From a virus (taxonomy: Duplodnaviria; Caudoviricetes), in IMG/VR virus record IMGVR_UViG_3300032233_002382, positions 96,001-160,000 of that record: DNA of 64,000 nucleotides; one strand, 5' to 3'. Position 1 is the stretch's first letter. Every line of letters starts with the position of its first letter. The notes under the pieces were generated by a model. That model saw only the letters and a program-made list of their open reading frames with translations. It was not told the DNA's origin and ran no database searches. Below are positions 18 to 24,936 of the stretch, piece after piece. The position numbers and the translations under genes were made by a program.

Positions 18-743
18 ATGTTAGATTTAAGAGAAGCGAATTTTAGCTCTGATCCATTCAGTCATTTTTACGTCGATAACTTTTTTCCAGCAGAATTCGC
101 TGAAAAAGTCCTCAATAATTTTCCGCCGCTAGACGACGCTTCCTGGGAGTTGTCTCAAGAAAAAGACATTGAAATAAAGTATAGATCGACTTGGAGATCA
201 GAGTTCGACATACCTGAAGAAATCGTTAATGCAGTAAGAATTCTTAACGGTGCCGAATTTCTTGAGTCCTTATCGAAAGTGATGGGAGTAAATAAGATAA
301 TTCCAGATCCGTATTTTACGGGCGGTGGATTAAATGTCAGCTCCAAGAGCGGACTTTTAGATGTGCACGTAGATGGGAATTATCACGATGCAACCGGCTT
401 AAATCGTCGTTTAAATGTTCTTCTTTATTTAAACAAAAATTGGGATCCGGAATGGGGAGGTCAATTCGGGTTATTCGATGAGTCAGGAGATAAATGTATA
501 AAGAAGATCGAACCAATCTTCAATAGGTTAGTAGTTTTCGAGACTCACGATCGCAGTTTTCATGGCTTTCCCGAACCACTTAAAGTGCCAGATGGTGTCA
601 CCCGTAAATCGTTGATTTTATATTATTACACGGTTGAGAAGCGTCCGGGGCATCTCGTAACGGTTGAGGAACCCCATAGCGCGTTATGGAAAAACAGAGC
701 TTTTCATGATAAGCGTGGTAACAAGACCAGGAATTTCACATAG
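18..743 (+). CDS. 2OG-Fe(II) oxygenase (prolyl-4-hydroxylase-like family)
   Basis: HxD motif (LDVHVDGN), distal His (SFHGFP) and 2OG-binding Arg (VTRKSL); WxxEWGG motif typical of this family. Confidence 0.85.
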   Translation: MLDLREANFSSDPFSHFYVDNFFPAEFAEKVLNNFPPLDDASWELSQEKDIEIKYRSTWRSEFDIPEEIVNAVRILNGAEFLESLSKVMGVNKIIPDPYFTGGGLNVSSKSGLLDVHVDGNYHDATGLNRRLNVLLYLNKNWDPEWGGQFGLFDESGDKCIKKIEPIFNRLVVFETHDRSFHGFPEPLKVPDGVTRKSLILYYYTVEKRPGHLVTVEEPHSALWKNRAFHDKRGNKTRNFT

Positions 744-1536
744 CTGATATTTGGTCTCGAATTTTCGGTATCTGGAGAAAGTCATTTAAAGTGTGAACAC
801 TTTTAAGCGTTCTGTTAATGCTTATATCTGTGTTGTGTGGCATTATATCCAGATTTAGATGGAATTTATCAGCGATGGCTTGGACTAGTTCATATTTTGA
901 AATGGAGTCGGAGAATAAATGAACGGCCCCATTTTGATATTTCTGGTGTTTGACCATCGAATATATGCAGTCTGAAAGCTGCTTCGTCGTCATGCCGTTC
1001 CACATGTGATTCATGTAGCCGTTTATGCGACCTCCATTTTGGGATTTCACCCATTCAACAAGACCCTTACTGCCAAATCGTTCTTCCCCAATTATGCTCG
1101 TTCTAATGGTCATTACATTTATGGGCTCCCCAATTGATTTCGACTTTCCGTATAAATCTAAAGCGTTGTGGGGATCTTTCTCGTCGTAATTTCCTTTCTT
1201 GCCGTCATAAACACAATCTGTACTAATGTGGAACAATTGGATGTGGTTCGCTTTGCAATAATTCGCCAATTCTAGAGGAAAAACGCCATTTATCTTAATG
1301 GTCTCAATCGGGTCAATTTCAGCTATACTTTTCACTACCCCGATACAGTTAATAATTATGTCGCTTGAGCTTAGAGCGTTCAAAGAGCATGTTTTAGGAT
1401 CAAATTTGATGAATCTAGCATCTTTAAATACAGGCTCATTTCTAGTCGAATGAATGACATCTACATTACGAGACTGGAAATATTTAACCAGTTCATAACC
1501 GAGCATACCTCTTGCGCCTAGCACTACGATTCTCAT
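736..1536 (-). CDS. RmlD-like NAD(P)-dependent sugar 4-reductase (extended SDR)
   Basis: GARGMLG Rossmann motif, HISTDCVYDG and YGKSK catalytic motif. Start moved to ATG 1536, which overlaps the upstream stop. Confidence 0.85.
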   Translation of the reverse strand: MRIVVLGARGMLGYELVKYFQSRNVDVIHSTRNEPVFKDARFIKFDPKTCSLNALSSSDIIINCIGVVKSIAEIDPIETIKINGVFPLELANYCKANHIQLFHISTDCVYDGKKGNYDEKDPHNALDLYGKSKSIGEPINVMTIRTSIIGEERFGSKGLVEWVKSQNGGRINGYMNHMWNGMTTKQLSDCIYSMVKHQKYQNGAVHLFSDSISKYELVQAIADKFHLNLDIMPHNTDISINRTLKSVHTLNDFLQIPKIRDQISAM

Positions 1537-2522
1537 ATGTAGCACCCTCTCACCAAGAGCTCTTTTGCCTTCTCTATATCTTGAACTTCGGATGAGTCGA
1601 ATTTAAGCATCGTCGTCTTGCGAATCGTATTGTAATTAATAGAACGATTGCGGGAAATTTCAATTTGAGGCTTCACGTATAAATATTGATTTCCATATTC
1701 GTACGCGTCCGCGCACTCGGACTCTGAAACTAGAGTCTCGTGGATCTTCTCTCCGGGTCTGATTCCTACTATGTTTATTTTAGTATCTTTATTTCCGTGC
1801 GCTTGTATTAGGCATTTGGCAATGTCGGTGATTTTAAAACTCGGCATTTTCATGACATAGGTGCCCACTCCGCACTCTCCACTAGCAGCCTTGAACAACA
1901 GCCCGACCGCTTCGGGAAGAGTTAGGAAAAACCTTGTCATTCGTTCATCGGTTATGTTTATTTGGTTGTACTTTTTTATCTGTTCGATAAACAACGGCAC
2001 AACCGAACCATTCGAGCCGAGAGCGTTCCCGCCACGAATACACTGGAATTCAGTGCCTACGGAGCTTGAATTCGCAGTAATAAATATTTTTTCGGCTATC
2101 GATTTGCTGTAACCGTATAGATTTATAGGAGCACACGCTTTATCTGTCGAAACCAGTATGGCTTTCTCGACTTCGGAAGATATGCAGGCATCGCGTAAAT
2201 TTGTGGTTCCTTGAATGTTAGTTTTAATGAACTCGTCAGGATTAGATTCACCAATCGGTACATGTTTCAACGCTGCTAAATGAAACACTATATCAATGCC
2301 TTTAGTAGCTTTGATTAATGAGTCTTTATCTCTAACATCACCGATGACAAATTCTAATGATGCGTCTGGTATTGACCGCTTCATCATGACTTGGGCATTC
2401 TCGTTACGAGAATAAACCCTGACGAGAGATGGATTATGATTCCTTAGAAGCTGACGGGTTAGTTCATGGCCCCATGATCCCGTTCCGCCTGTGATGAGGA
2501 TGCTCTTCTTGTCGAAATTCAT
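1533..2522 (-). CDS. UDP-GlcNAc 4,6-dehydratase/epimerase (FnlA/CapE/PseB-like)
   Basis: ITGGTGSWG, VFHLAALKHVP, STDKA, YGYSK, RGGNALGSNGSVVPLF, TDERMTRF and GIRPGEKIHE motifs. Confidence 0.9.
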   Translation of the reverse strand: MNFDKKSILITGGTGSWGHELTRQLLRNHNPSLVRVYSRNENAQVMMKRSIPDASLEFVIGDVRDKDSLIKATKGIDIVFHLAALKHVPIGESNPDEFIKTNIQGTTNLRDACISSEVEKAILVSTDKACAPINLYGYSKSIAEKIFITANSSSVGTEFQCIRGGNALGSNGSVVPLFIEQIKKYNQINITDERMTRFFLTLPEAVGLLFKAASGECGVGTYVMKMPSFKITDIAKCLIQAHGNKDTKINIVGIRPGEKIHETLVSESECADAYEYGNQYLYVKPQIEISRNRSINYNTIRKTTMLKFDSSEVQDIEKAKELLVRGCYI

Positions 2523-3580
2523 ATTTTATCCGATATGATTTGACTAACGTTTTTGGACACTTGAGGTTCTAAGTACTCTGGAGGAATGATCCATGATCGT
2601 TTATCCATTACCATATTCAGACTGCTAAGAATGTTGTCTGGATCGTAACCGCTACAAATAGTAGAACCAGCGTCCAGCAATTCCTGTCGCTCCGTCACCG
2701 GTCTTAAAGTGACAGAAGGTATGCCCAATAAACAACATTCCTCAGGAACAGTCCCGGAATCAGAGAGAACTGCCGTAGCTTTTCTTTCAATATGTTGGAA
2801 TTCAAGAAATCCGCAAGCATCACGGAGTATGACGCGATCGGGGATTGCTACTACCGATGCCGAAAGTTTCGACTTTAACCTGGGGTGAACCATTAAAACG
2901 CAGGGCAATTCTAAATGCTCTGCACACTTCCCCAGTCCTATGATGGTATTCTGGAGATTCTTAAGGTTATCGACGCATTCGGATCTATGGAGAGTAGCCA
3001 GCAAAAATCTTTCCGGCATTGGGAATTCTGAAATGCAGCGTTTGTCTTTATAGAAATTCATTACTTCTAGGATCGGATTTCCAACAACAAAGCTGTCTGC
3101 TTCCGTTCTTCCGCACTTGTATAGGTTTTTTAGCGAATGGTTAGTGTAAGCAAGGTTAAATGCTGAAGTAGCGTCTATAATTTTTCGATTGCGTTCTTCC
3201 GGTACTGAGTCATCCCAACAACGGTTACCTGCTTCAAGATGGAAGACTGGTACTCCATATCGTTCACAAATTATAGCCGAAAGACCTGAGTATGTGTCTC
3301 CGAGTATTACGGCACCATCTGGTTTTTCGGTTATCAGGATCTTTTCAACTTGAACCAAGAGATGTGCTAAATACTCGCCGGTAGTAGATCCGCGTGTAGT
3401 CAAACGGTAATCCGGCGTCCTCATATTCAAGTCAGACCAGAATATTGAGTTTAAATTTGGTTCGAAATTCTGCTGAGTGTCTACCAATATCTGCTGGAAA
3501 TTGCGGTCTAATATTCTACTGATTACCGACAGCCTGATGATCTCTGGCCTTGTTCCTACTATTGTAATTAATTTTTTCAC
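2519..3580 (-). CDS. Non-hydrolysing UDP-N-acetylhexosamine 2-epimerase (FnlC/QnlB/WecB family)
   Basis: IVGTRPEIIRLS, LGDT, HLEAGNRC, PEERNR, TLHR and SDSGTVPEE motifs; GTG start. Confidence 0.9.
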   Translation of the reverse strand: MKKLITIVGTRPEIIRLSVISRILDRNFQQILVDTQQNFEPNLNSIFWSDLNMRTPDYRLTTRGSTTGEYLAHLLVQVEKILITEKPDGAVILGDTYSGLSAIICERYGVPVFHLEAGNRCWDDSVPEERNRKIIDATSAFNLAYTNHSLKNLYKCGRTEADSFVVGNPILEVMNFYKDKRCISEFPMPERFLLATLHRSECVDNLKNLQNTIIGLGKCAEHLELPCVLMVHPRLKSKLSASVVAIPDRVILRDACGFLEFQHIERKATAVLSDSGTVPEECCLLGIPSVTLRPVTERQELLDAGSTICSGYDPDNILSSLNMVMDKRSWIIPPEYLEPQVSKNVSQIISDKI

Positions 3581-3581
3581 T

Positions 3582-4415
3582 TCAGATGACCTTTACAAGC
3601 ATGCACGACGAGCCCCATTCGAAACCACGATTGGCGACTACATCTCTCTGAGGGTTAAAGGTCTTATAGTACTCCTGATTTACGAATTGATTAGAATCTT
3701 TAGAATAAGATCGATCATGGGCCAAATGAATACCTGCTACCGAATCGTTTAGAACACATTTCATTCCGATAAGTTGCACTCTACGTCCGAAGTCTATGTC
3801 CTCCCAACCAACGCCCGCCATATATTTTTCATCGATACCGCCAAGAAGAGCAAAGTTTGATCGTTTCATTGCTCCCAGATAGTATTGATAAGCTTGGAAA
3901 TCTTCATGCCTACACCGAGCCGATCTTTTCGAAAGATTTTCCTTGCATATTGATTTAATGGTGCTTACTGAAATTCCTTTTTCTACCTCGGAAGCCACCA
4001 TTTCTTTAGGGCGTTCATCTAACCATCCATACAGAAAGTGATTCACATGCTCCGGATTTTTAAAATATTCGCGTATCTTCTGAACGTTGGTTGTTGCGTT
4101 TATGACTTCTGGGGAAGACAAGACTATTACATCGCCCTCACACATTTTAAATGCAAAATTCTGGATAGCAGATGGGTTGACATGCCCGTCATATCTTCGT
4201 TTAAAAAACGGCGATCTGGTCGGATCCACGATGGCTGCTTTAATTCTTAATCCTTTTTTACGATATTCTTCAACAGCAGCGACCCAACCACCGGGATTAT
4301 CAGAATTATCGATGGTGACTATTTCAAAGTCTATATCAGACTGACGTAGTAATGATTCTAGGTTCACTAAAAATAAATCGCTTCTATCTTTGTGAGGGTA
4401 TATGAAAGAAATCAT
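3582..4415 (-). CDS. Family 2 glycosyltransferase (paralog 1)
   Basis: EIVTIDNSD, N-FA-K-GD-I-LSSPE segment and GGIDEKYMAGVGWEDIDFGRR C-terminal GT2 motif. Confidence 0.75.
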   Translation of the reverse strand: MISFIYPHKDRSDLFLVNLESLLRQSDIDFEIVTIDNSDNPGGWVAAVEEYRKKGLRIKAAIVDPTRSPFFKRRYDGHVNPSAIQNFAFKMCEGDVIVLSSPEVINATTNVQKIREYFKNPEHVNHFLYGWLDERPKEMVASEVEKGISVSTIKSICKENLSKRSARCRHEDFQAYQYYLGAMKRSNFALLGGIDEKYMAGVGWEDIDFGRRVQLIGMKCVLNDSVAGIHLAHDRSYSKDSNQFVNQEYYKTFNPQRDVVANRGFEWGSSCMLVKVI

Positions 4416-4427
4416 TTTATATCCTAT

Positions 4428-5264
4428 CTATATGTATCTTACTAAGATTGATTCCGAACCCATACCATACTCCGTCCTACCACCGGGAGCATCTTTCGGG
4501 TTAAATTCGAAAAGTAATTTTCTATTTATGTAGTGATACTTATGCCACCAAGTTTTTTCGTGGCTGAGATGAATTCCTGCTACATTTTCTGATATTTTCG
4601 GAACAATTCCATGCATTTGAATCCTTCTAGCAAAGTCATCGTCCTCACAAGCGACTCCTTGCATGTAACGCTCATCAATTCCCCCGATCGCTTCAAAATG
4701 CTTTTTAAGTAAAGACCCGAGATAGTAATTGCAAGGGTTAAATGACTCCGGTCTGCATTTTGAGCTAGCTCGGGTCCAAGGGCCGCAAAATGCTTTTATA
4801 GTCTCATAAGTTAAATCAGCTTTCCTTAAATCTGCTGTTTCCTGAACCGACCTGTCATCAACCCAACCATATAAGAATTTAAACTCATTTTCTTTGGATT
4901 CGAAAAATGCTTTTATGTTTTTCACATTGTCAATAGCGTTAATTACTTCGGGCGAGGATAACGTTATGATATCTCCCGAGCTCATTTTGACCGCAAAATT
5001 CTGGCTGGCTGCGGGATTTACGTTTCCTTCGTATTTTTGGACGAAATGTACACACTTGGTAGGATCAACGATGGCCGCTTTAATGTTTAGTCCCTTTAGT
5101 CGATATTCTAGTACCAGATCGATCCATGGTTGCGGGTCATCGGAATTATCAACTGTAACGATTTCAAAATCATGGTCGGTCTGATTTAACAGAGAGTCTA
5201 AATTATGGCGGAATAATGTCGTCCGGTCTTTATGTGGATAGATATAAGATAGGGATTTTGTCAT
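4428..5264 (-). CDS. Family 2 glycosyltransferase (paralog 2)
   Basis: Colinear with 3582..4415 (YPHKDR, EIVTVDNSD, LSSPEVINA, GGIDERYMQGVACEDDDFARR). Confidence 0.75.
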   Translation of the reverse strand: MTKSLSYIYPHKDRTTLFRHNLDSLLNQTDHDFEIVTVDNSDDPQPWIDLVLEYRLKGLNIKAAIVDPTKCVHFVQKYEGNVNPAASQNFAVKMSSGDIITLSSPEVINAIDNVKNIKAFFESKENEFKFLYGWVDDRSVQETADLRKADLTYETIKAFCGPWTRASSKCRPESFNPCNYYLGSLLKKHFEAIGGIDERYMQGVACEDDDFARRIQMHGIVPKISENVAGIHLSHEKTWWHKYHYINRKLLFEFNPKDAPGGRTEYGMGSESILVRYI

Positions 5265-5282
5265 GATAAATAATCATACCAG

Positions 5283-5870
5283 TTAGACAATTCTGTCTAC
5301 GGCTTCATAAATACCTTTTAAATCAGGAAATGGATGCGCTTGACGAAGGGGTTTAAGTGAAGCGATCTCTCGAAACCTGACTATTTCCTTTTCGGAGGTC
5401 CAAAAGTATAAGAATAGATCTTTCCGAATTTTAGAATCTATAATATGTGTCGTGCGGTCTGAAATACGACCGAACTTTTTCATATCATAATAGACGAGGA
5501 CGCTAAGTGGTCGGAATATCATACGTCGCTTTAAGAATGCGGGCCATGGTGCCATAAAAACAAAGAAAAACCAAAAGAAGGTAAAACTAGGATAGATCGG
5601 GCTTAGTATTGATAAAAACGAGAGTCCACAAAGCACAATAGGGATGATATGAGAAAGATGGTAGGATACAGGCACGGACGATTTTAAAAAAGCATCAGAA
5701 ATGATAAAAAGAAATTCTCTGAAGTCGTCTTCATTCTGCACATTTAAGGTTAATCTTCTTAATACTCTTAAATGTCTTACCTTCTTTTTCAAATCCTTTT
5801 TCCTGCGTGCGAAAGATCCGCTTTTTGAGTACTCCTCGATCAAAATATTACAGGCAATCCCGTAATTCAT
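5283..5870 (-). CDS. Hypothetical membrane protein
   Basis: 195-aa ORF packed between neighbours, with two central hydrophobic segments. Confidence 0.6.
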   Translation of the reverse strand: MNYGIACNILIEEYSKSGSFARRKKDLKKKVRHLRVLRRLTLNVQNEDDFREFLFIISDAFLKSSVPVSYHLSHIIPIVLCGLSFLSILSPIYPSFTFFWFFFVFMAPWPAFLKRRMIFRPLSVLVYYDMKKFGRISDRTTHIIDSKIRKDLFLYFWTSEKEIVRFREIASLKPLRQAHPFPDLKGIYEAVDRIV

Positions 5871-5873
5871 AAC

Positions 5874-6896
5874 TCACCAATAGTTCCACTTTGTCCATTG
5901 TGTCTTGCACGGACTTCCAGGGCTATAATGCAGTTCGCCTAACTGTGGAACCACTATCACCGCAAAACAAGTGGACCTGTCGGGAGCATGCCTACAAATA
6001 CCGTCGTGACCTCCGTTGCCGTGGTCACCAGCGAGATCTTTTAACATATCAACATCAATTTTTCCATGGTGATTCAGCGCCCAGCTTTGCGCTTTTTGCC
6101 TTCTATACATCGAACTTTCCGGTCTTAAATTTAAATCTTTAGAGGTCAGAATATCATAGTGGTTCGTATGGACACATATGTCTTTGTCCGGCCTTATTTC
6201 GGCTGCAGATGATGAAGTACCTTCTACCATCTTGAAATCGCCAGACCCGTTTAAAACGATATTATTGTATGAACTGCTCCTGAATGGGTTTAAAAACATG
6301 CTCATTGCATCATGTATGTCGACTGACTCTAATCCCGCTCTATATGTGAGTAATCTCGGTATGCCGGGCTTTAAATCATCACATGCGAGGGCATTACCAG
6401 AAAACACCATTCCGAACGAGTTCACCGCAAAGGAAAAGAAATATGGGTCTCTCGTGATGCCAAGGATTGAAGGTTTTCCAGTTACGGAAATTCTAATTGT
6501 GCGAGGCGAGTATCCTGGTTTTTCGTCGTTAGTATGAAGAAGGCAGGTTAATTTTGATGATGTAGAACCAGGGGCACACAAAAGATCAGTACACCGTTCA
6601 GGGACGCTAGGCAGATCTTCATAGTCCCATAGCTCTTCACAAGACGCGAAGAACAAATCCCTAAATTCCACCTTTGCGGCTTCGCATATGCCCAGCATCT
6701 CCTCACAAATGTCAGGAATAAACTGCTTGGTTATTCTCATAGATTCATCGATATAATTATCTATGAATCTATCTTTAAGTCTTTTCGGTGGATTCGATAA
6801 ACTCTCATTCACCAAATCATGGATCTCCATCGGGAATGTCTGACCGATTTGGCGGCCTACTTCCCGATGGGATCCGTAAAATTCAGTGACATCCAT
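5874..6896 (-). CDS. Peptidase C45 family Ntn-hydrolase (acyl-CoA:6-APA acyltransferase-like)
   Basis: GSHREVGRQIG N-terminus, autoproteolytic Cys in ERCTD, HTNDE, NSFG, HTNHY and S-YR motifs. Confidence 0.75.
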   Translation of the reverse strand: MDVTEFYGSHREVGRQIGQTFPMEIHDLVNESLSNPPKRLKDRFIDNYIDESMRITKQFIPDICEEMLGICEAAKVEFRDLFFASCEELWDYEDLPSVPERCTDLLCAPGSTSSKLTCLLHTNDEKPGYSPRTIRISVTGKPSILGITRDPYFFSFAVNSFGMVFSGNALACDDLKPGIPRLLTYRAGLESVDIHDAMSMFLNPFRSSSYNNIVLNGSGDFKMVEGTSSSAAEIRPDKDICVHTNHYDILTSKDLNLRPESSMYRRQKAQSWALNHHGKIDVDMLKDLAGDHGNGGHDGICRHAPDRSTCFAVIVVPQLGELHYSPGSPCKTQWTKWNYW

Positions 6897-7300
6897 TAGT
6901 CACCAAAACAGAAATACTGAATGTAGTCGGTCGACGTAGGAGTCGAGATGACAACTAGTTCGCACTCTGTGATCGGCGTCGCTCCAGGAGTGGTTGAGGA
7001 AGCGAAGCAGAACTCGGAGTTTGGCGGCATGCTCAAGGTGTTAGTAACTGAACTGTTTAATCTGACACCGTACTCATTAGTCCCTAAGTTCTTTAGGATC
7101 AGGACGCGCGCGTTATTCACGGATCCGAAAGGAACGGCGATCGTATCGCCTGGAGATGCACTTGTATCGACGTCGATCTGTCCTACGTTCTGCGCTGCGC
7201 AAGAAGCGGTTACAGACAATGAGACAGTTCCAGAATTAGCAGCAGATCCTGGAGGAGTGTACTGGAGGCCGACGGTGGCGGTAGCGTTCAATGCTGGCAT
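6896..7300 (-). CDS. Hypothetical beta-rich protein, probably virion-associated
   Basis: 134-aa Ala/Thr/Ser/Val-rich ORF with an SD-like site (GGAG) upstream, next to fibre genes. Confidence 0.55.
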   Translation of the reverse strand: MPALNATATVGLQYTPPGSAANSGTVSLSVTASCAAQNVGQIDVDTSASPGDTIAVPFGSVNNARVLILKNLGTNEYGVRLNSSVTNTLSMPPNSEFCFASSTTPGATPITECELVVISTPTSTDYIQYFCFGD

Positions 7301-7376
7301 TTGAATCTCCTATCGAGAAAGGATGATATTTGGTGTTAGTCCTTTTAGTAGCAGCCTCTTATGAAGGACGGAAAAC

Positions 7377-8618
7377 GTGGCTACTCAAGTAAATGCATAT
7401 AGAACAGGCGGCACCGTCGAATTCACGGATGCCGTGATTAATGTTCTATCAGATGCCCCTCTTGATGAGCCTTCTACTCCGATTTTTGAGAATTTAACTA
7501 AAGTCTATGCAGATCTTGGTCTAGCTAGAAATCAATTTCAACTTCTATACTTGGTCTTCCAGAAAGCTACACGCCCGAGTCCAACGCAAGTAAGTTACAG
7601 CTTTACTGCCAGATTTGCCGCTCGAACCAGTAATTTAGCTGATCCATTTCGAGGCGCAAAAGGAGATGTTGGAGCTCGAGGACCTACCGGAGCATTAGGA
7701 CCTACCGGACCCATGGGGTCCATAGGGTTAGTTGGAAGCACTGGTGCTACAGGAAGTACCGGACCTACAGGTGCCTTAGGTCTAGTAGGTCCAACAGGTC
7801 CAATAGGATTTGTGGGCCCCACCGGACCGATGGGTTTAGAAGGTCTAGTCGGCCCTACGGGAAGTATGGGTCATGTCGGTCCGACAGGTCCGACTGGATT
7901 AACGGGCGACACTGGTATTCAGGGGCCTACAGGCTTCGGCGAGACCGGTCCTACAGGCTCGTCTGGTATAGAAGGTGCCACTGGCCCCACCGGCCCATTC
8001 GGTGGTCCTCCCGGACCCACCGGTCCTGTCGGTCCCACGGGTCCGACAAACGGTCCGACAGGTGCTTCGGGTCCTACAGGACCATCCGGACCGACAGGTC
8101 CAAAGGGCGATTCAGGATTCGGTGATACCGGACCCCAAGGACCTGTCGGTTCCACGGGCTCAATAGGCAACACTGGTCCAACCGGTCCAGCGGGCCAGAA
8201 TGGCATCGTAGGTCCTACTGGAAGCCACGGTCTCGTAGGGCCTACTGGTCCTCAAGGTCCTACGGGTTCCAATGCGAATATTCAGTTAAAGGTGCCGCTT
8301 GCCGAGCCTATTCTGGTCGGTCAGCTTGTTGCAATTACCTCTACAGGAGCGGTGGTTGCGGATAACAATGACGCATCTCGTCTTCCTGCTGCTGGATTTG
8401 CAGTCGTTGTCGGACCCACTGACGTATATCTAACAAACGTGGGACCTGTGTATAACTTGGCAGGACTGAATCAGGGTTTAGTATACTATTTGGGTTCGAC
8501 CGGGGCTGCTACGGCTACCGCTCCAAGCGGCGTCGTTATAAGTCAAACTGTCGGAGTGGCTGCAGATTCGACGTCTATCTTTGCCAACGTGAGTCCGTTT
8601 GGAATATACTACCCTTAG
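7377..8618 (+). CDS. Collagen-like protein with (Gly-Pro-Thr)-rich triple helix
   Basis: About 200 aa of Gly-X-Y repeats dominated by GPT, with non-collagen N- and C-terminal domains; GTG start. Confidence 0.9.
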
Positions 8619-8628
8619 TGAGGCTACT

Positions 8629-9276
8629 ATGGCTGTAAACGTTGGCGTACAGAAATTAGCGAGTAACTCGAAAAATATAATTACCGCCACAGTAGTGCTG
8701 ACTTCTGATGTGGCAATTCTTGATCCTATATCGGCTCTTTCGAATCCGTCGATAATTACTCGAATATATAATCAGTTATCTATTACTCCGGAAACATATC
8801 AACTTACTCAGGTGTCGTCTGCAGCACCGTCGATATCTAACTTAGGCTACATTTATAACTTCGCAGTTCGGTTTCAGAAAATCGGGACAGTTCCCGAAAC
8901 AAACCAATTCCTAGGTCCTCCTGGACCTGTTGGTGTTCAGGGACCTCGTGGTCCGGTCGGTCCCCCTGGCTTCATCGGGCCTGTAGGTCCCCCCGGAATC
9001 GAAGGCAATACGGGACCAAGGGGTCCAACCGGGTTCTCCGGGTCGCCAGGACTAGTGGGTCCTACTGGTCCAGCTGGTCTAAGCGTGGTAGGGCCAACCG
9101 GAGCTCCTGGATTAGTTGGGCCGACTGGATCTGCAGGTCTTGTAGGCCCGACTGGACCCGCTGGTAGTGGGTTGGTGACTGTGACCGCAGTAGATGGTGG
9201 CGGTCCCGAAATACTTTTATTGGCGGAAATAAATAATTTCTTTGTCGAGCTTGAAATCGACGGCGGCTCGCCTTAA
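8629..9276 (+). CDS. Second collagen-like protein
   Basis: GPV/GPT repeats, N-domain paralogous to 7377..8618 and IDGGSP C-terminus. ATG 8629 chosen, with GAGG upstream. Confidence 0.85.
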
Positions 9277-9290
9277 CCTAGGTGTAAATA

Positions 9291-12200
9291 ATGTCTACTT
9301 CGCAAATTCAACTTCGTCGCGGTACTGCTGCTAGCTGGTCCTCCATCAATCCTGTATTGGCTCAGGGAGAGATGGGGTATGAGACCGATACTGGCAAAAT
9401 TAAAATCGGTAATGGTACTACTGCGTGGAACGCACTGAGTTATTTCGCTGGCGGCGGCGGATCTGGAGATACCGGTCCTGCTGGTGCTACGGGACCCGCT
9501 GGTGCGGATGGTGCTACGGGTCCGGTCGGTCCCGCTGGTGCTACAGGTCCCGCAGGCGGTGGAGGAACCGGAGCTTTAGTATACTTCGATGAAGACCGAA
9601 GCGTGGCTTATAATACTATAGCGCTAAAACCAGATAGCGCTTTGCCATCAGATGTTAACGTCGCTCTAGTGGCCGGTTCAGGCGCTCTATTAGCTTCAAT
9701 ACCCGATGGGACTGTCGCTGGTGGTAATGATCGTGGCGCTTACGCTTTAGACTTCCAGCGTCTACGAGGCAATGCAAACCACGTAGCTTCCGGTGATTAC
9801 AGTTACATACTTAGCGGTGCATATAATAAAGTCCAGGGTACTGGTTCAGGTATACTTTTCAGTATCGATTCGGGAGTGGTCGGTGCGTCGAACTTCCTAG
9901 CAGTCGGTAATTCAGCTTTCTTGAATGGTGATGCAAACTCAGTTCTTTTAGGCGTGAATAGCGTCGTACAGGGTACCGGGAATTTCGCTGCCGTCGCTTA
10001 TGGTGCGACGATTTCTGGTTTCACTAACTCAGTACTATCTTCACCTCAAGCCTTTATCTCGGGTGATTCCAACTCCATACTTGGTGGCGAGTCTCAGCGC
10101 ATCACAGGCGACCACAGTGTCATCATCAGCGGCGAGAATAACCAAGTAAACGGCGGTTATTACGCGATCATTGGTAATGGTCGTAACAACATTGTGTCAG
10201 GAACCGGAACTGGCGTTCTAATCGGTGCCGAAAACAATGTATGGGGCGACTTATCGGCTGTACTTCTTGGTCAGCTTAACTCGGTAACCGCCTCGAGTTC
10301 CATAGTTCTTAATGGCCAAAATGTGATGGTGGTTGGCGATTCTCATTTAGTGGGTGCTGGATCTGGCCATACAGCTTCTGAAGGATATGGTGTAATCCTC
10401 AACGGCGTTTCGCATCGTGTGAGTGATCAATATGCAACGGTTCTAAATGGCGAAAATAACACTTCTGGAGCAAAGTTCGCAACGATTCTTAACGGTAAGA
10501 ATAACTTTGTGGGTGGGACTGCTTCTTCTGTAATAAGTGGTATGTACAACAGTGTTAACTCCCACTGGTCCGTGGCTGGCGGTGAATCGAATTTCGTAGG
10601 TGGTCGTGCGTCTGCTGTTATCGCGGGTCAAGCGAGCAATGCCAACGCCGATCTATCATTCGTGGGCGCAGGACAGCAAAACACAGTAAACGGAACAGCT
10701 TCATTAATCGGAGCAGGTCAGCGAAATACCGTATCAGATCAGTCAGCCGCGATAGTTGCTGGTAATGATAACCAGGCTTCTGGAGCTCAGTCTTTCATTG
10801 GAGCCGGTTCAAGTCATGCGGCGTCCGGACAGTATAGCTTTATCGGTTCAGGCCAATCAAATCAAGCACAGCAGCAGAGTAGTGCTGTTGTAGGCGGAAC
10901 CGACAATATAGCTTACAACTTCGCTTCATTTGTCGGCGCTGGTTCGACCAATGCTAGCGGATCCGCTTATTCTGCGGTGGTTGCCGGTTATGAAAACGAA
11001 GCTTTCGGGACTGCTTCGATAGTTGGCGCAGGTATTAGCAATAATCCCAACGGAACTGCGTCTGGCATTTTTGCTGGCCGCGATAGCTACATTGAGAGCG
11101 AAAATTCGGTTATTGTCGGTGGCCAGCAGAATACGATCGAGAGCCCGTCAGATAACGCATTCATAGGGGCTGGTTCACAGAACTACGTCGGAGGCGCTTC
11201 TGGATTCGTTGGAGCGGGTCAGTTAAATCAGGTTCAGAACTCCAATTCGCTTATCGGTGCTGGTCAAAGCAACGTTGTGTCATCGACAGAATCGTCAGTA
11301 TTGTCGGGTACCGGAAACGAAGTGTCGGGTAATAACTCGGCTATTTTGTCTGGAAGCTTTAACGCGGTGAAATCCACGAATTCTGCGGTGTTAAGTGGAT
11401 ATCAAAACACCGTCGATACCTCGGCCACCAATTCGGTGATCTTAGGCGGTCAAGGAAACACGGCGTCGGGCATCGGTTCGTTTATCGGTGGCGGCCAACA
11501 AAATATAGCACAGGGCATTCGTTCAACGGTCGTTAATGGCTTATTCAATGGGGCCGGTGCGCTTTACAGTGCTGTGATATCTGGCTATGCTAATTCCGCC
11601 ATCGGTCAGTATTCTACCATATTAAACGGCTCAGGCAACACTGCATCGGGTGATTACTCAGCTATCCTGTCTGGTATCAACAACGAGACCACAGGTTTAT
11701 ACTCCGTCATCATTTCTGGCGAGGGCCACACGGCGTCCGGAAGCAATTCATTCATAGGCGGCGGATACAGCAACGAAGTGACTGCCCAGAATTCGTCTGT
11801 TCTAGGAGGACGAGACAACGTAGCGTCAGGGCCGAATTCAGTGGTAGCCGGAGGTTATGGAAATAGCGCCCGCACCATTTACTCCGGAATACTGGGTGGT
11901 TGGAATAACGAATCGGTCGGGTCCGCCTCAGTGATCGTCGGTGGAACCTTTAACGAAGCAGGTTCTACCGCTACCGGTATTCTTGCCGGTACTAATAACC
12001 TTGCACAGAATTTAAATTCTTCGATCGCTTCGGGTAGACAGAACGTTATTACAAACTCAAGTGCTAACGATGAGTCTAGCTTTATCGGTGCAGGCATCAG
12101 CAATGATGTATCTGGAACCGCAAACACTATTGTTGCAGGGATCGGGAATCAAGTTGGCGGAACCGGATCGGCTATTGTTGCTGGTGATTTGAATTTTATC

Positions 12201-13565
12201 ACCAACGGAGTCTATAATTTTATCGGCGCCGGAGAAAATGTTTCCATACAGAGTTTAGACTTCGCATCCATAGTCGGTGGGAAGTTTAATCAGATGCTCA
12301 CGAACGCGGACTATGCTTTTATCGGAGGCGGCCAATCAAACTCTGTTAGAGGTGTGGCCTCTGTAGTCGCTGGTGGTCGTGATAACTTGACAGGCGATGA
12401 TGCAGAATATGTGGGCGTGTTAGGCGGTCGACAGAATAACATTTATGCGAGTTATTCATCCATTGTTGGTGGTAACCAGAATTCAATAGCAGCTGGAGCC
12501 GAACTTAGCGGTATTCTGTCGGGTTTCAGCAATCAAGTGTCTGCAACAGGATCAGCCATCGTCGCCGGGTATGATAACACCGTTTCCGGAAAATACTCGA
12601 TCGTAGGGGCCGGTTCCTTAAACCAGGTCACCAATGAACATTCGGCTGTCGTGGGCGGTCTAAATAACTTAACATATGATGATTATTCTACGATTGCAGG
12701 CGGTGCTTATAACGTAATATTCGACGGTTCAGCCTATGGGGCGTCTGGACTAAATGTGATTGCCGGAGGTTGGCTTAATAAGATACGCGCTGATCAAAGT
12801 GGCATTTTTTCTGGCGGTAACAATACAGTAACTGCAACTTCATATAGCGTGATCGCTGGCGGTAACAATAACACTATAGACGGCTCCTATAGGTCGATGA
12901 TCGGATCCGGTACTTTAAATCACATAAAGGACGGACAAGAAAGCGTTATCTTCGGGGGAAATAGGAACTACGTGACTGGGGCTAGCTGGGGTTCAGTAAT
13001 TGCTGGTGGATACCATAACTCCGTATCCGGTTGGTTTTCCTCGATACCTGGTGGTCGTGGGGCCAGCGATAGAGGCACTTGGGGAGTGTTCGCCTTATCT
13101 TCTAGCAGCGTCACGGGATCTGCGCAAACGAATGTGTCGCTCAGAGGAACCGCGCAGACTTCGATCTTGCCAGTAAAAACTATTACATTTGACGGTGTTA
13201 CCGAAACCACGATGACTTCATTGCAGCCGGTGTTCGGAGCAACCTCTTACGGAATTCTACAGATTCCAAACGCTTTCGCCGCTAAAGTTCGTCTGGACGT
13301 CACTGCTCGCAACGGTAATCCTGGAGAAGTCAAAGGCTGGTCTTATGATTTCATAGCTTATAATGATAGCGGAAATGTTTTCGTCGATGGTTTAACCGGA
13401 ATGTCTTATGGGTCATATGGTGGGTTTACCGACCCGACAGTGACTGGCAGTAGCTCACTTGGTGGCGTTATTGTTAACGTAATTGGTCCTGGCACTACAG
13501 CCACTACATGGGCAGGCACCTTCTACTCGACCGAAGTAGCCGGTTTAGGTGGTTGGACAGGCTAA
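9291..13565 (+). CDS. Long fibre/adhesin: Mtd/hyaluronidase-like N-terminal module, short collagen segment, beta-solenoid repeats
   Basis: IQLRRGTAASW..NPVLAQGEMGYETDTGKIKIGNG N-terminus, then more than 1000 aa of roughly 15-aa N-x-A-x-G-x-x-S-x-I-x-G-G-x-x repeats. Confidence 0.85.
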   Translation: MSTSQIQLRRGTAASWSSINPVLAQGEMGYETDTGKIKIGNGTTAWNALSYFAGGGGSGDTGPAGATGPAGADGATGPVGPAGATGPAGGGGTGALVYFDEDRSVAYNTIALKPDSALPSDVNVALVAGSGALLASIPDGTVAGGNDRGAYALDFQRLRGNANHVASGDYSYILSGAYNKVQGTGSGILFSIDSGVVGASNFLAVGNSAFLNGDANSVLLGVNSVVQGTGNFAAVAYGATISGFTNSVLSSPQAFISGDSNSILGGESQRITGDHSVIISGENNQVNGGYYAIIGNGRNNIVSGTGTGVLIGAENNVWGDLSAVLLGQLNSVTASSSIVLNGQNVMVVGDSHLVGAGSGHTASEGYGVILNGVSHRVSDQYATVLNGENNTSGAKFATILNGKNNFVGGTASSVISGMYNSVNSHWSVAGGESNFVGGRASAVIAGQASNANADLSFVGAGQQNTVNGTASLIGAGQRNTVSDQSAAIVAGNDNQASGAQSFIGAGSSHAASGQYSFIGSGQSNQAQQQSSAVVGGTDNIAYNFASFVGAGSTNASGSAYSAVVAGYENEAFGTASIVGAGISNNPNGTASGIFAGRDSYIESENSVIVGGQQNTIESPSDNAFIGAGSQNYVGGASGFVGAGQLNQVQNSNSLIGAGQSNVVSSTESSVLSGTGNEVSGNNSAILSGSFNAVKSTNSAVLSGYQNTVDTSATNSVILGGQGNTASGIGSFIGGGQQNIAQGIRSTVVNGLFNGAGALYSAVISGYANSAIGQYSTILNGSGNTASGDYSAILSGINNETTGLYSVIISGEGHTASGSNSFIGGGYSNEVTAQNSSVLGGRDNVASGPNSVVAGGYGNSARTIYSGILGGWNNESVGSASVIVGGTFNEAGSTATGILAGTNNLAQNLNSSIASGRQNVITNSSANDESSFIGAGISNDVSGTANTIVAGIGNQVGGTGSAIVAGDLNFITNGVYNFIGAGENVSIQSLDFASIVGGKFNQMLTNADYAFIGGGQSNSVRGVASVVAGGRDNLTGDDAEYVGVLGGRQNNIYASYSSIVGGNQNSIAAGAELSGILSGFSNQVSATGSAIVAGYDNTVSGKYSIVGAGSLNQVTNEHSAVVGGLNNLTYDDYSTIAGGAYNVIFDGSAYGASGLNVIAGGWLNKIRADQSGIFSGGNNTVTATSYSVIAGGNNNTIDGSYRSMIGSGTLNHIKDGQESVIFGGNRNYVTGASWGSVIAGGYHNSVSGWFSSIPGGRGASDRGTWGVFALSSSSVTGSAQTNVSLRGTAQTSILPVKTITFDGVTETTMTSLQPVFGATSYGILQIPNAFAAKVRLDVTARNGNPGEVKGWSYDFIAYNDSGNVFVDGLTGMSYGSYGGFTDPTVTGSSSLGGVIVNVIGPGTTATTWAGTFYSTEVAGLGGWTG

Positions 13566-13581
13566 ATTAGAATCATGTGAT

Positions 13582-13614
13582 CTGCCTAGACCGGATTCAT
13601 TCCGGTCTAGGCAG
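13582..13614. terminator. Strong hairpin after the fibre gene
   Basis: Perfect 14-bp inverted repeat CTGCCTAGACCGGA-TTCAT-TCCGGTCTAGGCAG; no long U-tract. Confidence 0.65.
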
Positions 13615-13647
13615 GTACAGTTATACATGAATCTCATATTGGTGTGT

Positions 13648-14349
13648 ATGACCGACGTCTTAGGCATTTACGGATCTTCAAAATCCGATTTTCCTAAGAG
13701 TATGTCATACTTAGCACCGGACGCAGCTCAGGCATATATAAACATCTGCCATATCAATCGTCTCCGAATTTCTGACATGTACCGATCGCCAGAGCAGTCC
13801 TTGATAGCTCGACAGACGAAGTCTGGAGTTCAACCGCCGGGCTTTTCCGCACACAATTTTGGGGTAGCTATCGATGTGGATGTAGACGACTGTCTTTCAA
13901 GGTTTAAGAAATCAAAGCCGCAGTTTGATTCGCTAATGGAAGGCTTCGGATGGTATTGCCACCGCAAAGATGGCAAGCGCGGATTCGAAGACTGGCACTA
14001 CAACTTCCTGGGTGACATGAAATCAGACCCGACCATAAAGTCCAAGTTCGAGTCCGGTAGTACCACAGCTGATGCGGTCGAAGAGAAGATTCGGTTAATG
14101 TACGGCAGCCATTTCACGCTTACTAGTAAACAAATACAATCCGAATTGTCTAAGCTAAAGCTATACTCAGGCGATATAGACGGAATTATCGGACCCCGTA
14201 CCAGAATGGCAGTCTCAATATTTCAGAAGACCTGGGGTTTAAAAGAGTCTGGTGAGGCAGACGAACGCACCATGCGTACATTAGTGACAGTCGCTGCCGA
14301 TAAGCACGTCATTAGTTCAGCATCCACTTTAACACATCCAGTAGGCTAA
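13648..14349 (+). CDS. Endolysin: M15-family Zn peptidase plus peptidoglycan-binding domain
   Basis: YRSPEQ, SAHNFGVAIDVD and EDWHY motifs; C-terminal PG_binding_1-like IDGIIGPRTRMAVSIFQK..GL..SGEAD. Start moved to ATG 13648. Confidence 0.8.
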   Translation: MTDVLGIYGSSKSDFPKSMSYLAPDAAQAYINICHINRLRISDMYRSPEQSLIARQTKSGVQPPGFSAHNFGVAIDVDVDDCLSRFKKSKPQFDSLMEGFGWYCHRKDGKRGFEDWHYNFLGDMKSDPTIKSKFESGSTTADAVEEKIRLMYGSHFTLTSKQIQSELSKLKLYSGDIDGIIGPRTRMAVSIFQKTWGLKESGEADERTMRTLVTVAADKHVISSASTLTHPVG

Positions 14350-15358
14350 ATTTAGCAATCCAAGCTTCAGCATCCATGTACCCAAACGTTACATACAGAT
14401 CGTTATTCTGAAGCATCATTCCAGCTGCAAATTCTATCTTCATTTGCTCTTTTAGGAAGAATGGTTTACTGTAGGCGTTTATGAAGCCTTCGTGATTGCC
14501 GTGAATGAATCGGTGACTGTAAACGCGACCGGTCGGGAATTCTGCGACTTCGTGTATAATCCCGATGAAGCCACTTCCGTAGTTAACAAACTGACTACCT
14601 CCTCGGAAATGTTCGGCAAGGCTGCCCTGAAGTTCTACTGCCCTGGTTTTTAACTCGTTTCCATCGTAGACCGTCTGAACGCAACGGTTGAAATGACTGC
14701 TTGCATACAGCCATTTCATCTCGTTCGAGGGAACAATTGGCATCCAGTTCTTTTCTTGTCTGATGATTTTTGGCGTGATGATCGTTAGATCAGTGTACTC
14801 TTCCGTCGCTTCGTTAATTTTGGCCACTCCGATCCGACAACTACCATCGTAGGGAGCCACATCTCTGACCGTAGCAGACACGTGCAGGATACCGTTAATT
14901 TCGAATAAACGGGCATCCTCAAGACCCTCGACTGAAAATCCATTCGAGACATAGAACGGATCCTTTAGTACTGATCTTCTATATACTGAAAGATCCTCAT
15001 TACAATGTAATAAAATCGATTTCGTCCTGATCTTATTATTATCTTCTGGCGGCATGATGTAGTTGCCGCTATTATACTGGTAATTGGAGCTACGAACCAT
15101 AATAACAACGGAGCCATCGGATCTTCTTAAAATGCTTGGATTGAATAACGACCAATTAGGAAATGCAGGTGGTATGTCGATCTTGGCTAGAAATACCTCC
15201 ATGTACTTCGATAATTTCTGAATGTGCGGTGCCCTTGCAAGTCTTGCCCTGTAACAATTCATCTGATCAGTATTGTTGTTCAAGTACTGATCACAGGTCA
15301 AGATCATTGCTTCGTGCTGATCTGCCTGGTTTGGTGCGTTTAGATTGGTATCGGACAT
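14312..15358 (-). CDS. Five-bladed beta-propeller, glycoside hydrolase/phosphorylase-like (GH130/GH43-like fold)
   Basis: FNPSI, GLEDARLF, EKNWMP, FRGGSQ, IIHEV, HRF and IEFAAG motifs. Confidence 0.6.
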   Translation of the reverse strand: MSDTNLNAPNQADQHEAMILTCDQYLNNNTDQMNCYRARLARAPHIQKLSKYMEVFLAKIDIPPAFPNWSLFNPSILRRSDGSVVIMVRSSNYQYNSGNYIMPPEDNNKIRTKSILLHCNEDLSVYRRSVLKDPFYVSNGFSVEGLEDARLFEINGILHVSATVRDVAPYDGSCRIGVAKINEATEEYTDLTIITPKIIRQEKNWMPIVPSNEMKWLYASSHFNRCVQTVYDGNELKTRAVELQGSLAEHFRGGSQFVNYGSGFIGIIHEVAEFPTGRVYSHRFIHGNHEGFINAYSKPFFLKEQMKIEFAAGMMLQNNDLYVTFGYMDAEAWIAKFSLLDVLKWMLN

Positions 15359-15379
15359 CTTTCACCCTGGGAGCTAATC

Positions 15380-16459
15380 GTGAAATTCGGTTCAATTACT
15401 TTATCAGGTAACAGCTCTTCCATCATCGCTGACGCCATTTCGTCAGTAGTTGATGTTGTCGATGTAGTGATTCTTATTGATACTGGTATTTCTGATGATA
15501 CTATACAGAAAGCAAGCCTAGCCGCGAAGGGCAAACTCGTTATTAAGAAATTCGCTTGGATAAATGACTTCTCGGCGGCACGCAATTATGCGCTCGAAGC
15601 GGCCAAAGAGGAGGGATGTGACTGGGCGATAATGTTAGACACTGATGAGCGGATCATTTGGAACGACGAGAATCTTACAGCCATATTAAACTCAAACACA
15701 GAAGATAAACGGAAATTTGACGTTGTGATGGTTAATTCAGTAGACGACTCATATAGCAAAGAGCGAATTTTTCGCATACCGGTTCGAGAAAAGTATTTTG
15801 GTCCGACTCATGAAACGTTCCCAGTGTATAAAGTCGGCGGTTTAATCGCCAAACGTTTAAAGTTCGTCGAGCTACCGAAATCAGACGAACAGTATCGAAA
15901 GAAATTCACTCGCGACCTCCAAATTCTTGAGAAGCACGTGCTCGAGAATCCTAAGGATCCGAGATGGTTTTATTATTTAGGAGATACTAACAAGAACTTA
16001 GGGAGATTCAAGGAAGCGATTCATGCATATGATGCTTGTTACAGAATTAACGGCTGGGATGAGGAATCTGCCTGGGCCTGCTACAGAATAGCGGAGTGTT
16101 TTGTAGCTCTAAAAGATCTTCAGTCGGCTTTAGATGCCTGTGCCAGAGGGATAGGACGACATCCAGGTATAGGCGAGTTATACTGGCTTGCTGGTTGGCT
16201 ATGTTTTCAGATGAACCAGTTCTCTAAAGCGGAGTATTGGTCATATCAGGCGATCAGCGCAGGGTTTCAAGAAGGCTTTGCTTCGAAAGTGTTCCGCATC
16301 GGATTCAGACATCCGATTGGACTGTATGATGGACCGTACGACGTTTTGCGCTGGTCACTACTAAAGCAGAATAAGCCAGTGTCTGAAGAACTTCAATCGA
16401 AATTGGTAAAGGCTATGGAGGCTAGAACAAATGGAATCAAAGCAGTCACCGGAATCTAA
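15380..16459 (+). CDS. GT2 glycosyltransferase with TPR repeats
   Basis: IDTGISDDT, WINDFSAARNYAL, LDTDE (DxD) and HE motifs, then TPRs (DPRWFYYLGDT..A..AY, WACYRIAEC). Confidence 0.85.
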   Translation: MKFGSITLSGNSSSIIADAISSVVDVVDVVILIDTGISDDTIQKASLAAKGKLVIKKFAWINDFSAARNYALEAAKEEGCDWAIMLDTDERIIWNDENLTAILNSNTEDKRKFDVVMVNSVDDSYSKERIFRIPVREKYFGPTHETFPVYKVGGLIAKRLKFVELPKSDEQYRKKFTRDLQILEKHVLENPKDPRWFYYLGDTNKNLGRFKEAIHAYDACYRINGWDEESAWACYRIAECFVALKDLQSALDACARGIGRHPGIGELYWLAGWLCFQMNQFSKAEYWSYQAISAGFQEGFASKVFRIGFRHPIGLYDGPYDVLRWSLLKQNKPVSEELQSKLVKAMEARTNGIKAVTGI

Positions 16460-24783: not shown

Positions 24784-24936
24784 GGGGATCGCTGCGCAGT
24801 CGCCAGACCGGTGGAAGGTCACGACTGGGCCGTTGGGGATCATCAACGGCATCCAAAAATGGGCCAGCCATTGATGTTGGTTTCGCGGTCGTGTTGTGTC
24901 GCTTATTCAGCGCTGGCCTCTTCCCGCGCCACTTTT
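24784..24936. ncRNA. Candidate structured RNA in an otherwise non-coding gap
   Basis: Stems CAGTCG/CGACTG (24797-802/24822-27) with inner GACC/GGTC; GCCGTTG/CAACGGC (24829-35/24844-50); GGCCAGC/GCTGGCC (24862-68/24912-18). Possible closing pair GGGGA/TTCCC, then a T5 run. Confidence 0.3.

Follow-up and report, generated by a model that had tools for sequence, protein, structure and literature searches.

In C. difficile, the glycosyltransferase SgtA, a protein of 358 amino acids (aa) that joins a GT-A domain to tetratricopeptide repeats (TPR), is encoded beside bclA3 and adds beta-O-GlcNAc to the threonines of collagen repeats (PMC7157674). The fibrils of the Megavirinae carry L-RhaNAc and L-QuiNAc, which the virus makes itself through a trio of dehydratase, reductase and 2-epimerase, and Mimivirus L230 is a collagen lysyl hydroxylase/glucosyltransferase that acts on viral collagen-like proteins (PMC9614988). 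In mycobacteriophages, phage-encoded glycosyltransferases decorate virion proteins of the phage itself, the targets being capsid and tail-tube subunits, each at its C-terminus (Freeman et al. 2023, summarised in PMC12619734). Each ingredient of the system that we describe here is known from one of these cases. It is encoded in a 64,000-nucleotide stretch of phage DNA (hereafter, the window), which comprises bases 96,001-160,000 of the 307,777-bp IMG/VR virus record IMGVR_UViG_3300032233_002382, a record judged 72% complete. The window contains a glycosyltransferase built like SgtA (GT2-TPR), collagen-like fibre genes and a nucleotide-sugar pathway, and the reading that we favour, with moderate confidence, is that this phage O-glycosylates its own collagen-like fibres by means of a cytoplasmic system; it is based on sequence comparison and on analogy with the systems above. 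An earlier note on this DNA had cited the SgtA/bclA3 pair and the virus-made sugars of giant viruses as background, and the published work upholds both (PMC7157674, PMC9614988).

Genes were assigned from a listing of open reading frames (ORFs) together with Pfam, NCBIfam and PHROG scans. The remaining genes of the window are those of phage replication, namely a DNA polymerase, DnaB-like and other helicases, a UvsX-like recombinase and a clamp loader; given these genes and the size of the record, the source is therefore a jumbo phage. A megablast search against isolated phages found no near-identical DNA. The glycosylation island covers about 25 kb and holds about eleven glycosyltransferase-like genes. 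The genes that carry the main argument are as follows (window coordinates).

15380-16459, plus strand: GT2-TPR glycosyltransferase, 359 aa, a candidate initiator of protein O-glycosylation (PF00535 and TPR families).
14312-15358, minus strand: five-bladed beta-propeller of the GH130/GT108 fold, 348 aa, with an N-terminal helical hairpin (AlphaFold2 (AF2) model and Foldseek).
7377-8618, plus strand: collagen-like fibre protein 1, 413 aa, with globular N- and C-terminal domains (PF01391, 90 bits; PHROG tail-fibre matches).
8599-9276, plus strand: collagen-like fibre protein 2, 225 aa (PF01391, 46.6 bits).
9291-13565, plus strand: 1424-aa fibre with an Mtd_N N-terminus, 13 Gly-X-Y triplets and a long Ser/Gly/Asn-rich beta-roll (PF18454, 58.5 bits; PF21300, 124 bits).

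The GT2-TPR protein scored 24.6 bits against PF00535, for which the cut-off is 23.3, and several TPR families matched it at residues 174-292. Its motif D87-T-D89-E-R (DTDER) was invariant in 30 homologs. In the AF2 model (predicted local distance difference test, pLDDT, 89.3), a Rossmann-like beta/alpha core at residues 1-165 is followed by helical repeats at residues 169-357. The protein is without a transmembrane segment, and its hydrophobic peak at residues 15-33 is a strand of the core. Among the PDB sequence matches GmaR was the best (4.7e-10), with SunS also found (8e-9), and in the Foldseek search only SunS and ThuS matched over the full length, that is, over GT-A plus TPR (query TM-score, TMq, 0.62-0.64), the other hits covering one half. 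By sequence and by model, the enzyme is thus closest to the class of GT-A+TPR enzymes that glycosylate peptides and proteins, and its activity is predicted on that basis. The search for homologs of this protein yielded 570 at 45-58% identity. In the related 257-kb phage G001 (IMGVR_UViG_3300027754_000034), the GT2-TPR gene is flanked by one for a Mom-family-domain protein of 507 aa and one for a double ThyX of 437 aa (5782-7305 and 11874-13187 of locus L005), in a context of purine-metabolism genes unlike that of the present phage.

Compared by architecture, not by sequence, the phage enzyme resembles SgtA closely: both are soluble, of the same size, and composed of an N-terminal GT-A domain and a C-terminal TPR domain. 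In addition, in spore-forming Bacillota the genes for relatives of the phage enzyme are paired with collagen genes as sgtA is with bclA3. The differences are that the phage enzyme belongs to a virus rather than to a spore and lies 1.8-8 kb from the fibre genes, that its clade is a separate and highly conserved one (members 45-58% identical) in which the closest cellular members are without a collagen neighbour, and that a partner of the GH130 fold, a pathway for a rare sugar and some ten other glycosyltransferase-like genes accompany it. The BclA exosporium glycoproteins of Bacillus provide a looser parallel. The glycocin S-glycosyltransferases SunS and ThuS and the Listeria flagellin O-GlcNAc transferase GmaR also combine GT-A with TPR and act on peptide or protein acceptors; however, their identity to the phage enzyme is just 11-19%, and their substrates (the Cys of a glycocin precursor, the Ser/Thr of flagellin) have no counterpart here.

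The predicted substrates are encoded in one plus-strand operon, which consists of the two collagen-like proteins, the 1424-aa fibre and, as its last gene, a lysin located between the fibre and the propeller gene:

13549-14349, plus strand: VanY-type peptidase with a PG_binding_1 domain (Pfam, PHROG).

Collagen-like protein 1 contains 22 GPT triplets, and Thr occupies 41% of its Y positions. The three genes had been described earlier as GPT-collagens with Gly-X-Y repeats, a label that fits gene 1 well, gene 2 less well (5 GPT) and gene 3 not at all: the two collagen-like genes stand, whereas the third encodes a fibre with a short stretch of 13 triplets and no GPT (13.3% Ser). The N-terminus of this fibre gave PHROG tail-fibre matches, and its C-terminal domain is common to a 299-aa collagen ORF at 185701-186597 of the genome. 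The N- and C-terminal globular domains of the collagens and the fibre had no Pfam or PDB match. The Mtd_N domain, the PHROG tail-fibre matches and the position of relatives in baseplate and structural modules suggest that the collagen-like proteins are virion fibres. Three more collagen-containing ORFs occur elsewhere in the genome (8854-10998, 185701-186597 and 247097-249772), two of which have a common N-terminal domain and long, probably beta-helical C-terminal parts.

We then asked how often the enzyme and collagen-like genes lie together elsewhere. A profile search of IMG/VR gave 379 GT2-TPR relatives, and the best 80 loci were examined over 10 kb on either side, an ORF being counted as collagen-like when runs of eight or more Gly-X-Y triplets made up at least 30 of its residues. 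As a control, 119 random IMG/VR loci (1.09 Mb) were drawn by an arbitrary 14-mer. Collagen-like ORFs were present in 31 of the 80 phage loci, at 3.0 per 100 kb, against five in the whole control (0.46 per 100 kb), so that they are about 6.6 times as dense near GT2-TPR as in random phage DNA. When near-identical loci were merged, which reduced the 80 to 66 groups, a collagen ORF was found in 22, and within 600 bp in nine, where about 1.0 would be expected (Poisson p ~1e-6). The Y position in these ORFs is mostly Thr, or Thr with Gln. Of the 11 phage loci closest to the present enzyme (32-50% identity), six have a collagen ORF, at a distance of 0.3-6.4 kb.

Among the best 80 bacterial loci, 33 had collagen ORFs; almost all of these were from spore-forming Bacillota, and in many the ORF was immediately downstream. 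The bacterial relatives at 24-31% identity, about seventy in number, are likewise almost all from spore-forming Bacillota, and half of them have Thr-rich collagen ORFs. This pairing is the SgtA/BclA arrangement.

The propeller gene, which had no Pfam match, had been described in the earlier note as glycosidase- or phosphorylase-like, and this description was borne out at the level of the fold. Foldseek aligned the AF2 model (pLDDT 88.4) with GH130 phosphorylases (1.4e-11, TMq 0.58, and 0.55-0.60 over the GH130 enzymes; beta-mannoside phosphorylases) and with Leishmania MPT-2, a GDP-Man-dependent GT108 mannosyltransferase (2e-8), although sequence identity to the solved GH130/GT108 members is just 12-15%. 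An exhaustive search gave 2178 propeller relatives, and we examined the best 148 representatives. Of these, 69 were at least 550 aa long, and 46 contained a region that resembles the present GT2-TPR, with up to 46% identity, and that stood either before or after the propeller. In four propeller/GT2-TPR fusions there is, in addition, an HtrL-like domain at the N-terminus, with 32-35% identity to a gene in the upstream part of the island. Since the propeller and the HtrL-like domain are fused to GT2-TPR elsewhere, these fusions tie three separate genes of the present island into what, by sequence, is one functional unit.

Two of the fusions, whose architectures were confirmed by Pfam, are found beside collagen genes. 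P0239 (GT2-TPR plus propeller, locus L211), which is 46% identical to the present GT2-TPR, belongs to the baseplate/tail-fibre module of a myovirus; its gene is directly 3' of that for a 404-aa collagen protein (PF01391, 149 bits), itself downstream of Baseplate_J, and is followed by a gene for a TPR plus propeller protein. P0333 (HtrL plus GT2-TPR plus propeller, locus L213) has a 277-aa collagen gene directly after it. In phages of 42-44 kb, stand-alone propeller homologs lie between the head-tail joining and tape-measure genes, near short GPT-repeat ORFs. In another jumbo phage, L008, a propeller homolog (35% identity, 1.6e-61) adjoins GT2-TPR beside sugar genes. The same propeller recurs in multidomain giant-virus glycosylation proteins (BFVD and Atlas; TMq 0.81-0.84 in BFVD). 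From the model and these relationships, we consider the propeller the probable glycan-elongating or glycan-processing partner of GT2-TPR. A complex prediction for the two proteins gave a score of 0.00 and no verdict, which counts neither for nor against binding. In L008 itself (ENA GROS21 scaffold_106), the sugar island at 1945-12165, with a GT4, two GT2 and a short-chain dehydrogenase/reductase (SDR) gene, is split by a TubZ gene and adjoins the GT2-TPR/propeller pair, and 18105-20642 contains an intein-containing SpoVR and a PrkA gene.

The nucleotide-sugar pathway consists of three genes whose stops and starts overlap, within a longer minus-strand operon.

736-1545, minus strand: RmlD-like 4-reductase, 269 aa, without a cupin domain (PF04321, 85 bits; TIGR01214, 87 bits, below cut-off).
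1533-2522, minus strand: UDP-GlcNAc 4,6-dehydratase of the inverting PseB/FnlA/CapE type (PF02719, 309 bits).
2519-3580, minus strand: non-hydrolysing UDP-HexNAc 2-epimerase, WecB-like (PF02350, 220.7 bits; TIGR00236, 183.7 bits against a cut-off of 210).

The dehydratase scored 324.7 bits against the PseB equivalog model (cut-off 407.75) and 221 against FnlA (cut-off 730), below both, and its PDB matches were H. pylori FlaA1 (PseB; 4.6e-70), A. baumannii WbjB (1.5e-63) and S. aureus CapE (2.4e-59). FlaA1, WbjB and CapE are inverting enzymes that open the L-series. The reductase had PF04321 alone, and its best PDB matches were RmlD proteins, CapF being absent from the matches. There was no aminotransferase near the sugar genes, and the sole DegT-like match in the record was weak and 150 kb away. 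All three enzymes fell below the NCBIfam equivalog cut-offs, and the product is therefore only inferred, from family membership, to be UDP-L-RhaNAc and then UDP-L-QuiNAc, an assignment that we consider fairly likely.

This set parallels Mg534-Mg539 of Megavirus chilensis and WbvB-WbvR-WbvD, in which a dehydratase/5-epimerase, an RmlD-like reductase and a 2-epimerase start from UDP-GlcNAc. As in the Megavirinae, the pathway is clustered with glycosyltransferases, those of the giant viruses decorating virion fibrils (PMC9614988), and the propeller fold is common to both. The two cases differ in that the present virus is a phage of bacteria, that the giant-virus glycans are polysaccharides on non-collagen fibril proteins, and that the identity of the phage sugar is read from family membership alone. 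The earlier note had spoken of convergence on the giant-virus strategy; the shared modules suggest a common toolkit instead, so that convergence may understate the case.

Further likeness to a giant virus is provided by an oxygenase gene, the last of a co-directional plus-strand run (GT17, GT2, GT32-like) that starts upstream of the window.

18-743, plus strand: 2-oxoglutarate (2OG)-Fe(II) oxygenase, prolyl-hydroxylase type (PF13640, 2OG-FeII_Oxy_3, 61.8 bits; motif H117-x-D119...H182).

Its best PDB matches were the prolyl hydroxylases HIF-PHD, OGFOD1 and EGLN, and a protein with a prolyl 4-hydroxylase (P4H) alpha domain was also matched. Like Mimivirus with L230, the phage thus encodes a 2OG oxygenase, a glycosyltransferase and its own collagen-like proteins, the action of the enzymes on these proteins being, in the phage, a prediction. 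However, L230 hydroxylates Lys and glucosylates the hydroxylysine, whereas the phage collagens have Lys at only 0-4% of Y positions, and the phage oxygenase is of the prolyl-hydroxylase type and is encoded by a separate gene. Collagen-like protein 2 is the only product of the cluster with several prolines at the Y position, the canonical site of prolyl 4-hydroxylase: Pro occupies Y in five of its 28 triplets (three GPP, GSP and GAP). X-Pro-Gly sites accordingly number five in collagen-like protein 2 and one each in collagen-like protein 1 and the 1424-aa fibre. In the mycobacteriophages, a collagen-like substrate, a GT2-TPR/propeller pair and a phage nucleotide-sugar pathway are not reported, as far as the summary goes (PMC12619734).

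In the mechanism that we propose, host UDP-GlcNAc would be converted to UDP-L-RhaNAc and then to UDP-L-QuiNAc by the logic of WbvB/R/D or Mg534-536. The GT2-TPR enzyme would act in the cytoplasm, like SgtA, GmaR and SunS; its TPR part would engage the fibre proteins, and it would place the first sugar on the Thr of Gly-X-Thr repeats. The propeller, the HtrL-like proteins and the other soluble glycosyltransferases would then lengthen the glycan with the rare sugar, the oxygenase would hydroxylate the few X-Pro-Gly sites, mainly in collagen-like protein 2, and the decorated trimeric fibres would be mounted on the virion. We favour fibre glycosylation because of the class to which GT2-TPR belongs, the association with collagen in phages and Bacillota, the fusions and the structural-module contexts. 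We favour a protein target over the envelope or DNA because the island has no export machinery and no hydroxymethyl-pyrimidine route was found. It had been claimed earlier that the phage builds its own sugar and decorates its collagen fibres with it; the GT-A+TPR class, the collagen association and the fusions found elsewhere speak for this claim, whereas the position of GT2-TPR in this genome, which is not adjacent to the collagen-rich genes, does not. Uses such as shielding, receptor mimicry and host-range tuning are speculation.

Several observations weigh against this reading. Between the GT2-TPR gene and the fibre gene there are 1.8 kb, in which the lysin and the propeller gene lie, and the collagen-rich genes are at a distance of 6-8 kb. 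Prokaryotic collagens in general have Thr at the Y position, which is thus non-discriminating. About ten close cellular relatives (34-48% identity), from myxobacterial, proteobacterial, planctomycete and similar genomes or metagenome-assembled genomes, have no collagen neighbour, and the clade can therefore have other substrates. When the 80 phage loci were searched by tblastn with the oxygenase, the C45-family enzyme of the minus-strand operon, the sugar enzymes, the lysin and the propeller, only Mtd_N matches and one weak PseB-like match were obtained. Apart from that weak match, relatives of the oxygenase, the sugar-pathway enzymes and the GT2 paralogs were absent from these loci, so that position in this genome is the one link between these genes and the fibres. 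The rare sugar may feed a host envelope glycan rather than a fibre glycan, 6-deoxy-L-HexNAc sugars being typical of O-antigen. In L008, no collagen ORF lies within 10 kb of the GT2-TPR/propeller pair.

Some of the close cellular relatives are from Polyangiaceae and Chondromyces; the G+C content of the phage window is about 45%. In Chondromyces crocatus (CP012159; locus L006, 3253-9952), the GT2-TPR homolog follows five tandem paralogs of a Cys-rich predicted lipoprotein of about 380-398 aa with Gly/Ser-rich linkers. These lipoproteins are candidate non-collagen substrates of the myxobacterial GT2-TPR clade.

The alternative that survives best has a glycan of the host envelope (O-antigen, capsule or exopolysaccharide on undecaprenyl phosphate) as the target of the sugar pathway and of most soluble glycosyltransferases, which would remodel it with the host flippase and polymerase, so as to block superinfection or change the cell surface; only GT2-TPR, if any of them, would act on protein. 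L-QuiNAc, L-RhaNAc and L-FucNAc are classic O-antigen and capsule sugars, soluble peripheral glycosyltransferases are usual in undecaprenyl-pyrophosphate pathways, and the lack of a conserved collagen link for the sugar genes and GT2 paralogs in other phages fits this view, which is also the published reading of jumbo-phage sugar/glycosyltransferase clusters (PMC7824862). However, family scans of the 27 island genes found no priming phosphoglycosyl transferase, flippase or polymerase, and by hydropathy none of the island glycosyltransferases has a transmembrane segment, although the host could supply such functions. Moreover, the minus-strand sugar operon and the plus-strand fibre operon diverge from a common 76-bp intergenic control region (7301-7376), the HtrL-like and propeller modules are fused elsewhere to a GT2-TPR of the protein-glycosylating class, and giant viruses put the product of the same trio on virion fibrils. 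We regard envelope remodelling as unlikely overall, but as a real rival for the part of the system other than GT2-TPR.

It is also conceivable, and we think quite unlikely, that virion proteins are glycosylated, but at sites other than collagen repeats, such as the Ser-rich beta-roll of the 1424-aa fibre, capsid or tail proteins, or a neighbouring surface protein with thrombospondin type-3 repeats. The gene nearest to the GT2-TPR/propeller pair is that of the beta-roll fibre, with its high Ser content and few Gly-X-Y triplets, and bacterial adhesins, which are glycosylated, provide a model for such a roll. The L008 pair without a collagen gene nearby would fit as well, but the statistical association in phages and Bacillota is specific to collagen-like ORFs, and the fused enzymes of L211 and L213 are directly beside collagen genes. 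Glycosylation of capsid and tail-tube subunits is, according to the summary of the mycobacteriophage work, the only demonstrated phage case (PMC12619734). The neighbouring surface protein, of 786 aa and with 11 thrombospondin type-3 repeats, is followed by a 377-aa ORF (window 17604-21094).

That the glycosyltransferases modify phage DNA bases against restriction is very improbable: DNA glycosylation is the classic role of phage glycosyltransferases, and in G001 the GT2-TPR gene is among nucleotide-metabolism genes, beside the Mom-family protein and ThyX, but no thymidylate-synthase/hydroxymethylase homolog was found in the 308-kb record, the fold class of GT2-TPR is known only for peptide and protein acceptors, we know of no 6-deoxy-L-HexNAc on DNA, and the collagen association would be left unexplained.

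Beyond the glycosylation of the phage's own fibres, we put forward a wider proposal, which is possible but doubtful as a whole: jumbo phages and giant viruses may share a modular cytoplasmic toolkit, made of a GT-A+TPR initiator, a GH130-fold propeller transferase and an HtrL-like module, fused or split, which here would build an L-RhaNAc/L-QuiNAc heteroglycan on collagen-like fibres, with the oxygenase making hydroxyproline, which would either stabilise the helix or offer a further, Skp1-like site for glycan attachment. Since they share these modules, the glycosylation machineries of phages and giant viruses may be linked in evolution. If fibre glycosylation is true, then tailed phages join spores and giant viruses in having glycosylated collagen-like fibres, made by enzymes of their own and with a rare sugar of their own. 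A glycan that is invisible to sequence annotation could then underlie receptor binding, host range and the resistance of the fibres to proteases and antibodies, and the usual reading of jumbo-phage sugar clusters as modifiers of the host surface would be questioned. The pairing seems common, given the 379 enzyme relatives in IMG/VR, and GT2-TPR, the propeller, the HtrL-like protein and the collagen form a defined set of parts that can be tested without phage culture. Our literature searches found no description of the phage GT2-TPR/collagen pairing or of the propeller fusions. The present island is among the most elaborate examples, and it adds the links to GH130-fold and HtrL-like fusions.

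The glycosylation genes named in the earlier note were all present where it had placed them, as judged by the ORF listing and the family scans and, for the propeller, by the AF2 fold; its list had overlooked the lysin, a C45-family enzyme, two ORFs of no assigned family and about 8.7 kb of further glycosylation genes immediately upstream of the window. The minus-strand operon that ends with the sugar genes comprises eight genes, read from 7300 to 736, with touching or overlapping ends. Its other five genes are as follows.

3582-4415, minus strand: GT2 paralog a, soluble GT-A, with a weak Glyco_transf_7C-like C-terminal motif (Pfam).
4428-5264, minus strand: GT2 paralog b, 48% identical to paralog a (Pfam, pairwise alignment).
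5283-5870, minus strand: 195-aa protein with one hydrophobic segment (Kyte-Doolittle 19-residue maximum 2.10).
5874-6896, minus strand: C45-family autoproteolytic acyltransferase/hydrolase of the N-terminal nucleophile (Ntn) fold (NF040521, 138.7 bits against a cut-off of 85; PF03417, 49.8 bits).
6896-7300, minus strand: 134-aa protein, first gene of the operon (ORF listing).

The family of GT2 paralog a is very rare (4 proteins in 5.8 billion), and a PDB profile search gave only marginal matches, to the C-terminal regions of chondroitin synthase and beta4GalT, which are too weak to name an acceptor. A third paralog, 39% identical to the window pair, is located upstream (genome 89175-89990), and an alignment of the three searched against IMG/VR gave one locus only. 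For the 195-aa protein, Pfam, NCBIfam and PHROG gave no family, and the Atlas search returned nothing usable for it or for the 134-aa protein.

In the upstream region, for which genome positions 80,001-98,000 were inspected, the island continues with one block of genes.

Genome 87,240-95,933: a cytidylyltransferase (TagD-size), two GT32-like, two GT2, a GT17, two HtrL/YibB-like proteins and a 393-aa GalE/GMD-like SDR.

Other GT2 genes occur at 28.9 and 31.1 kb of the genome. Elsewhere in the window, the ORF at 24811-25533 encodes an RNA recognition motif of the eukaryotic type (RRM_1, 74.7 bits), an unusual feature for a phage. Finally, a 507-aa protein at 43028-44551 (phrog_11956) gave weak matches to glutamine amidotransferase and NAD synthetase, and by these matches it may be a phage NAD+ synthase.

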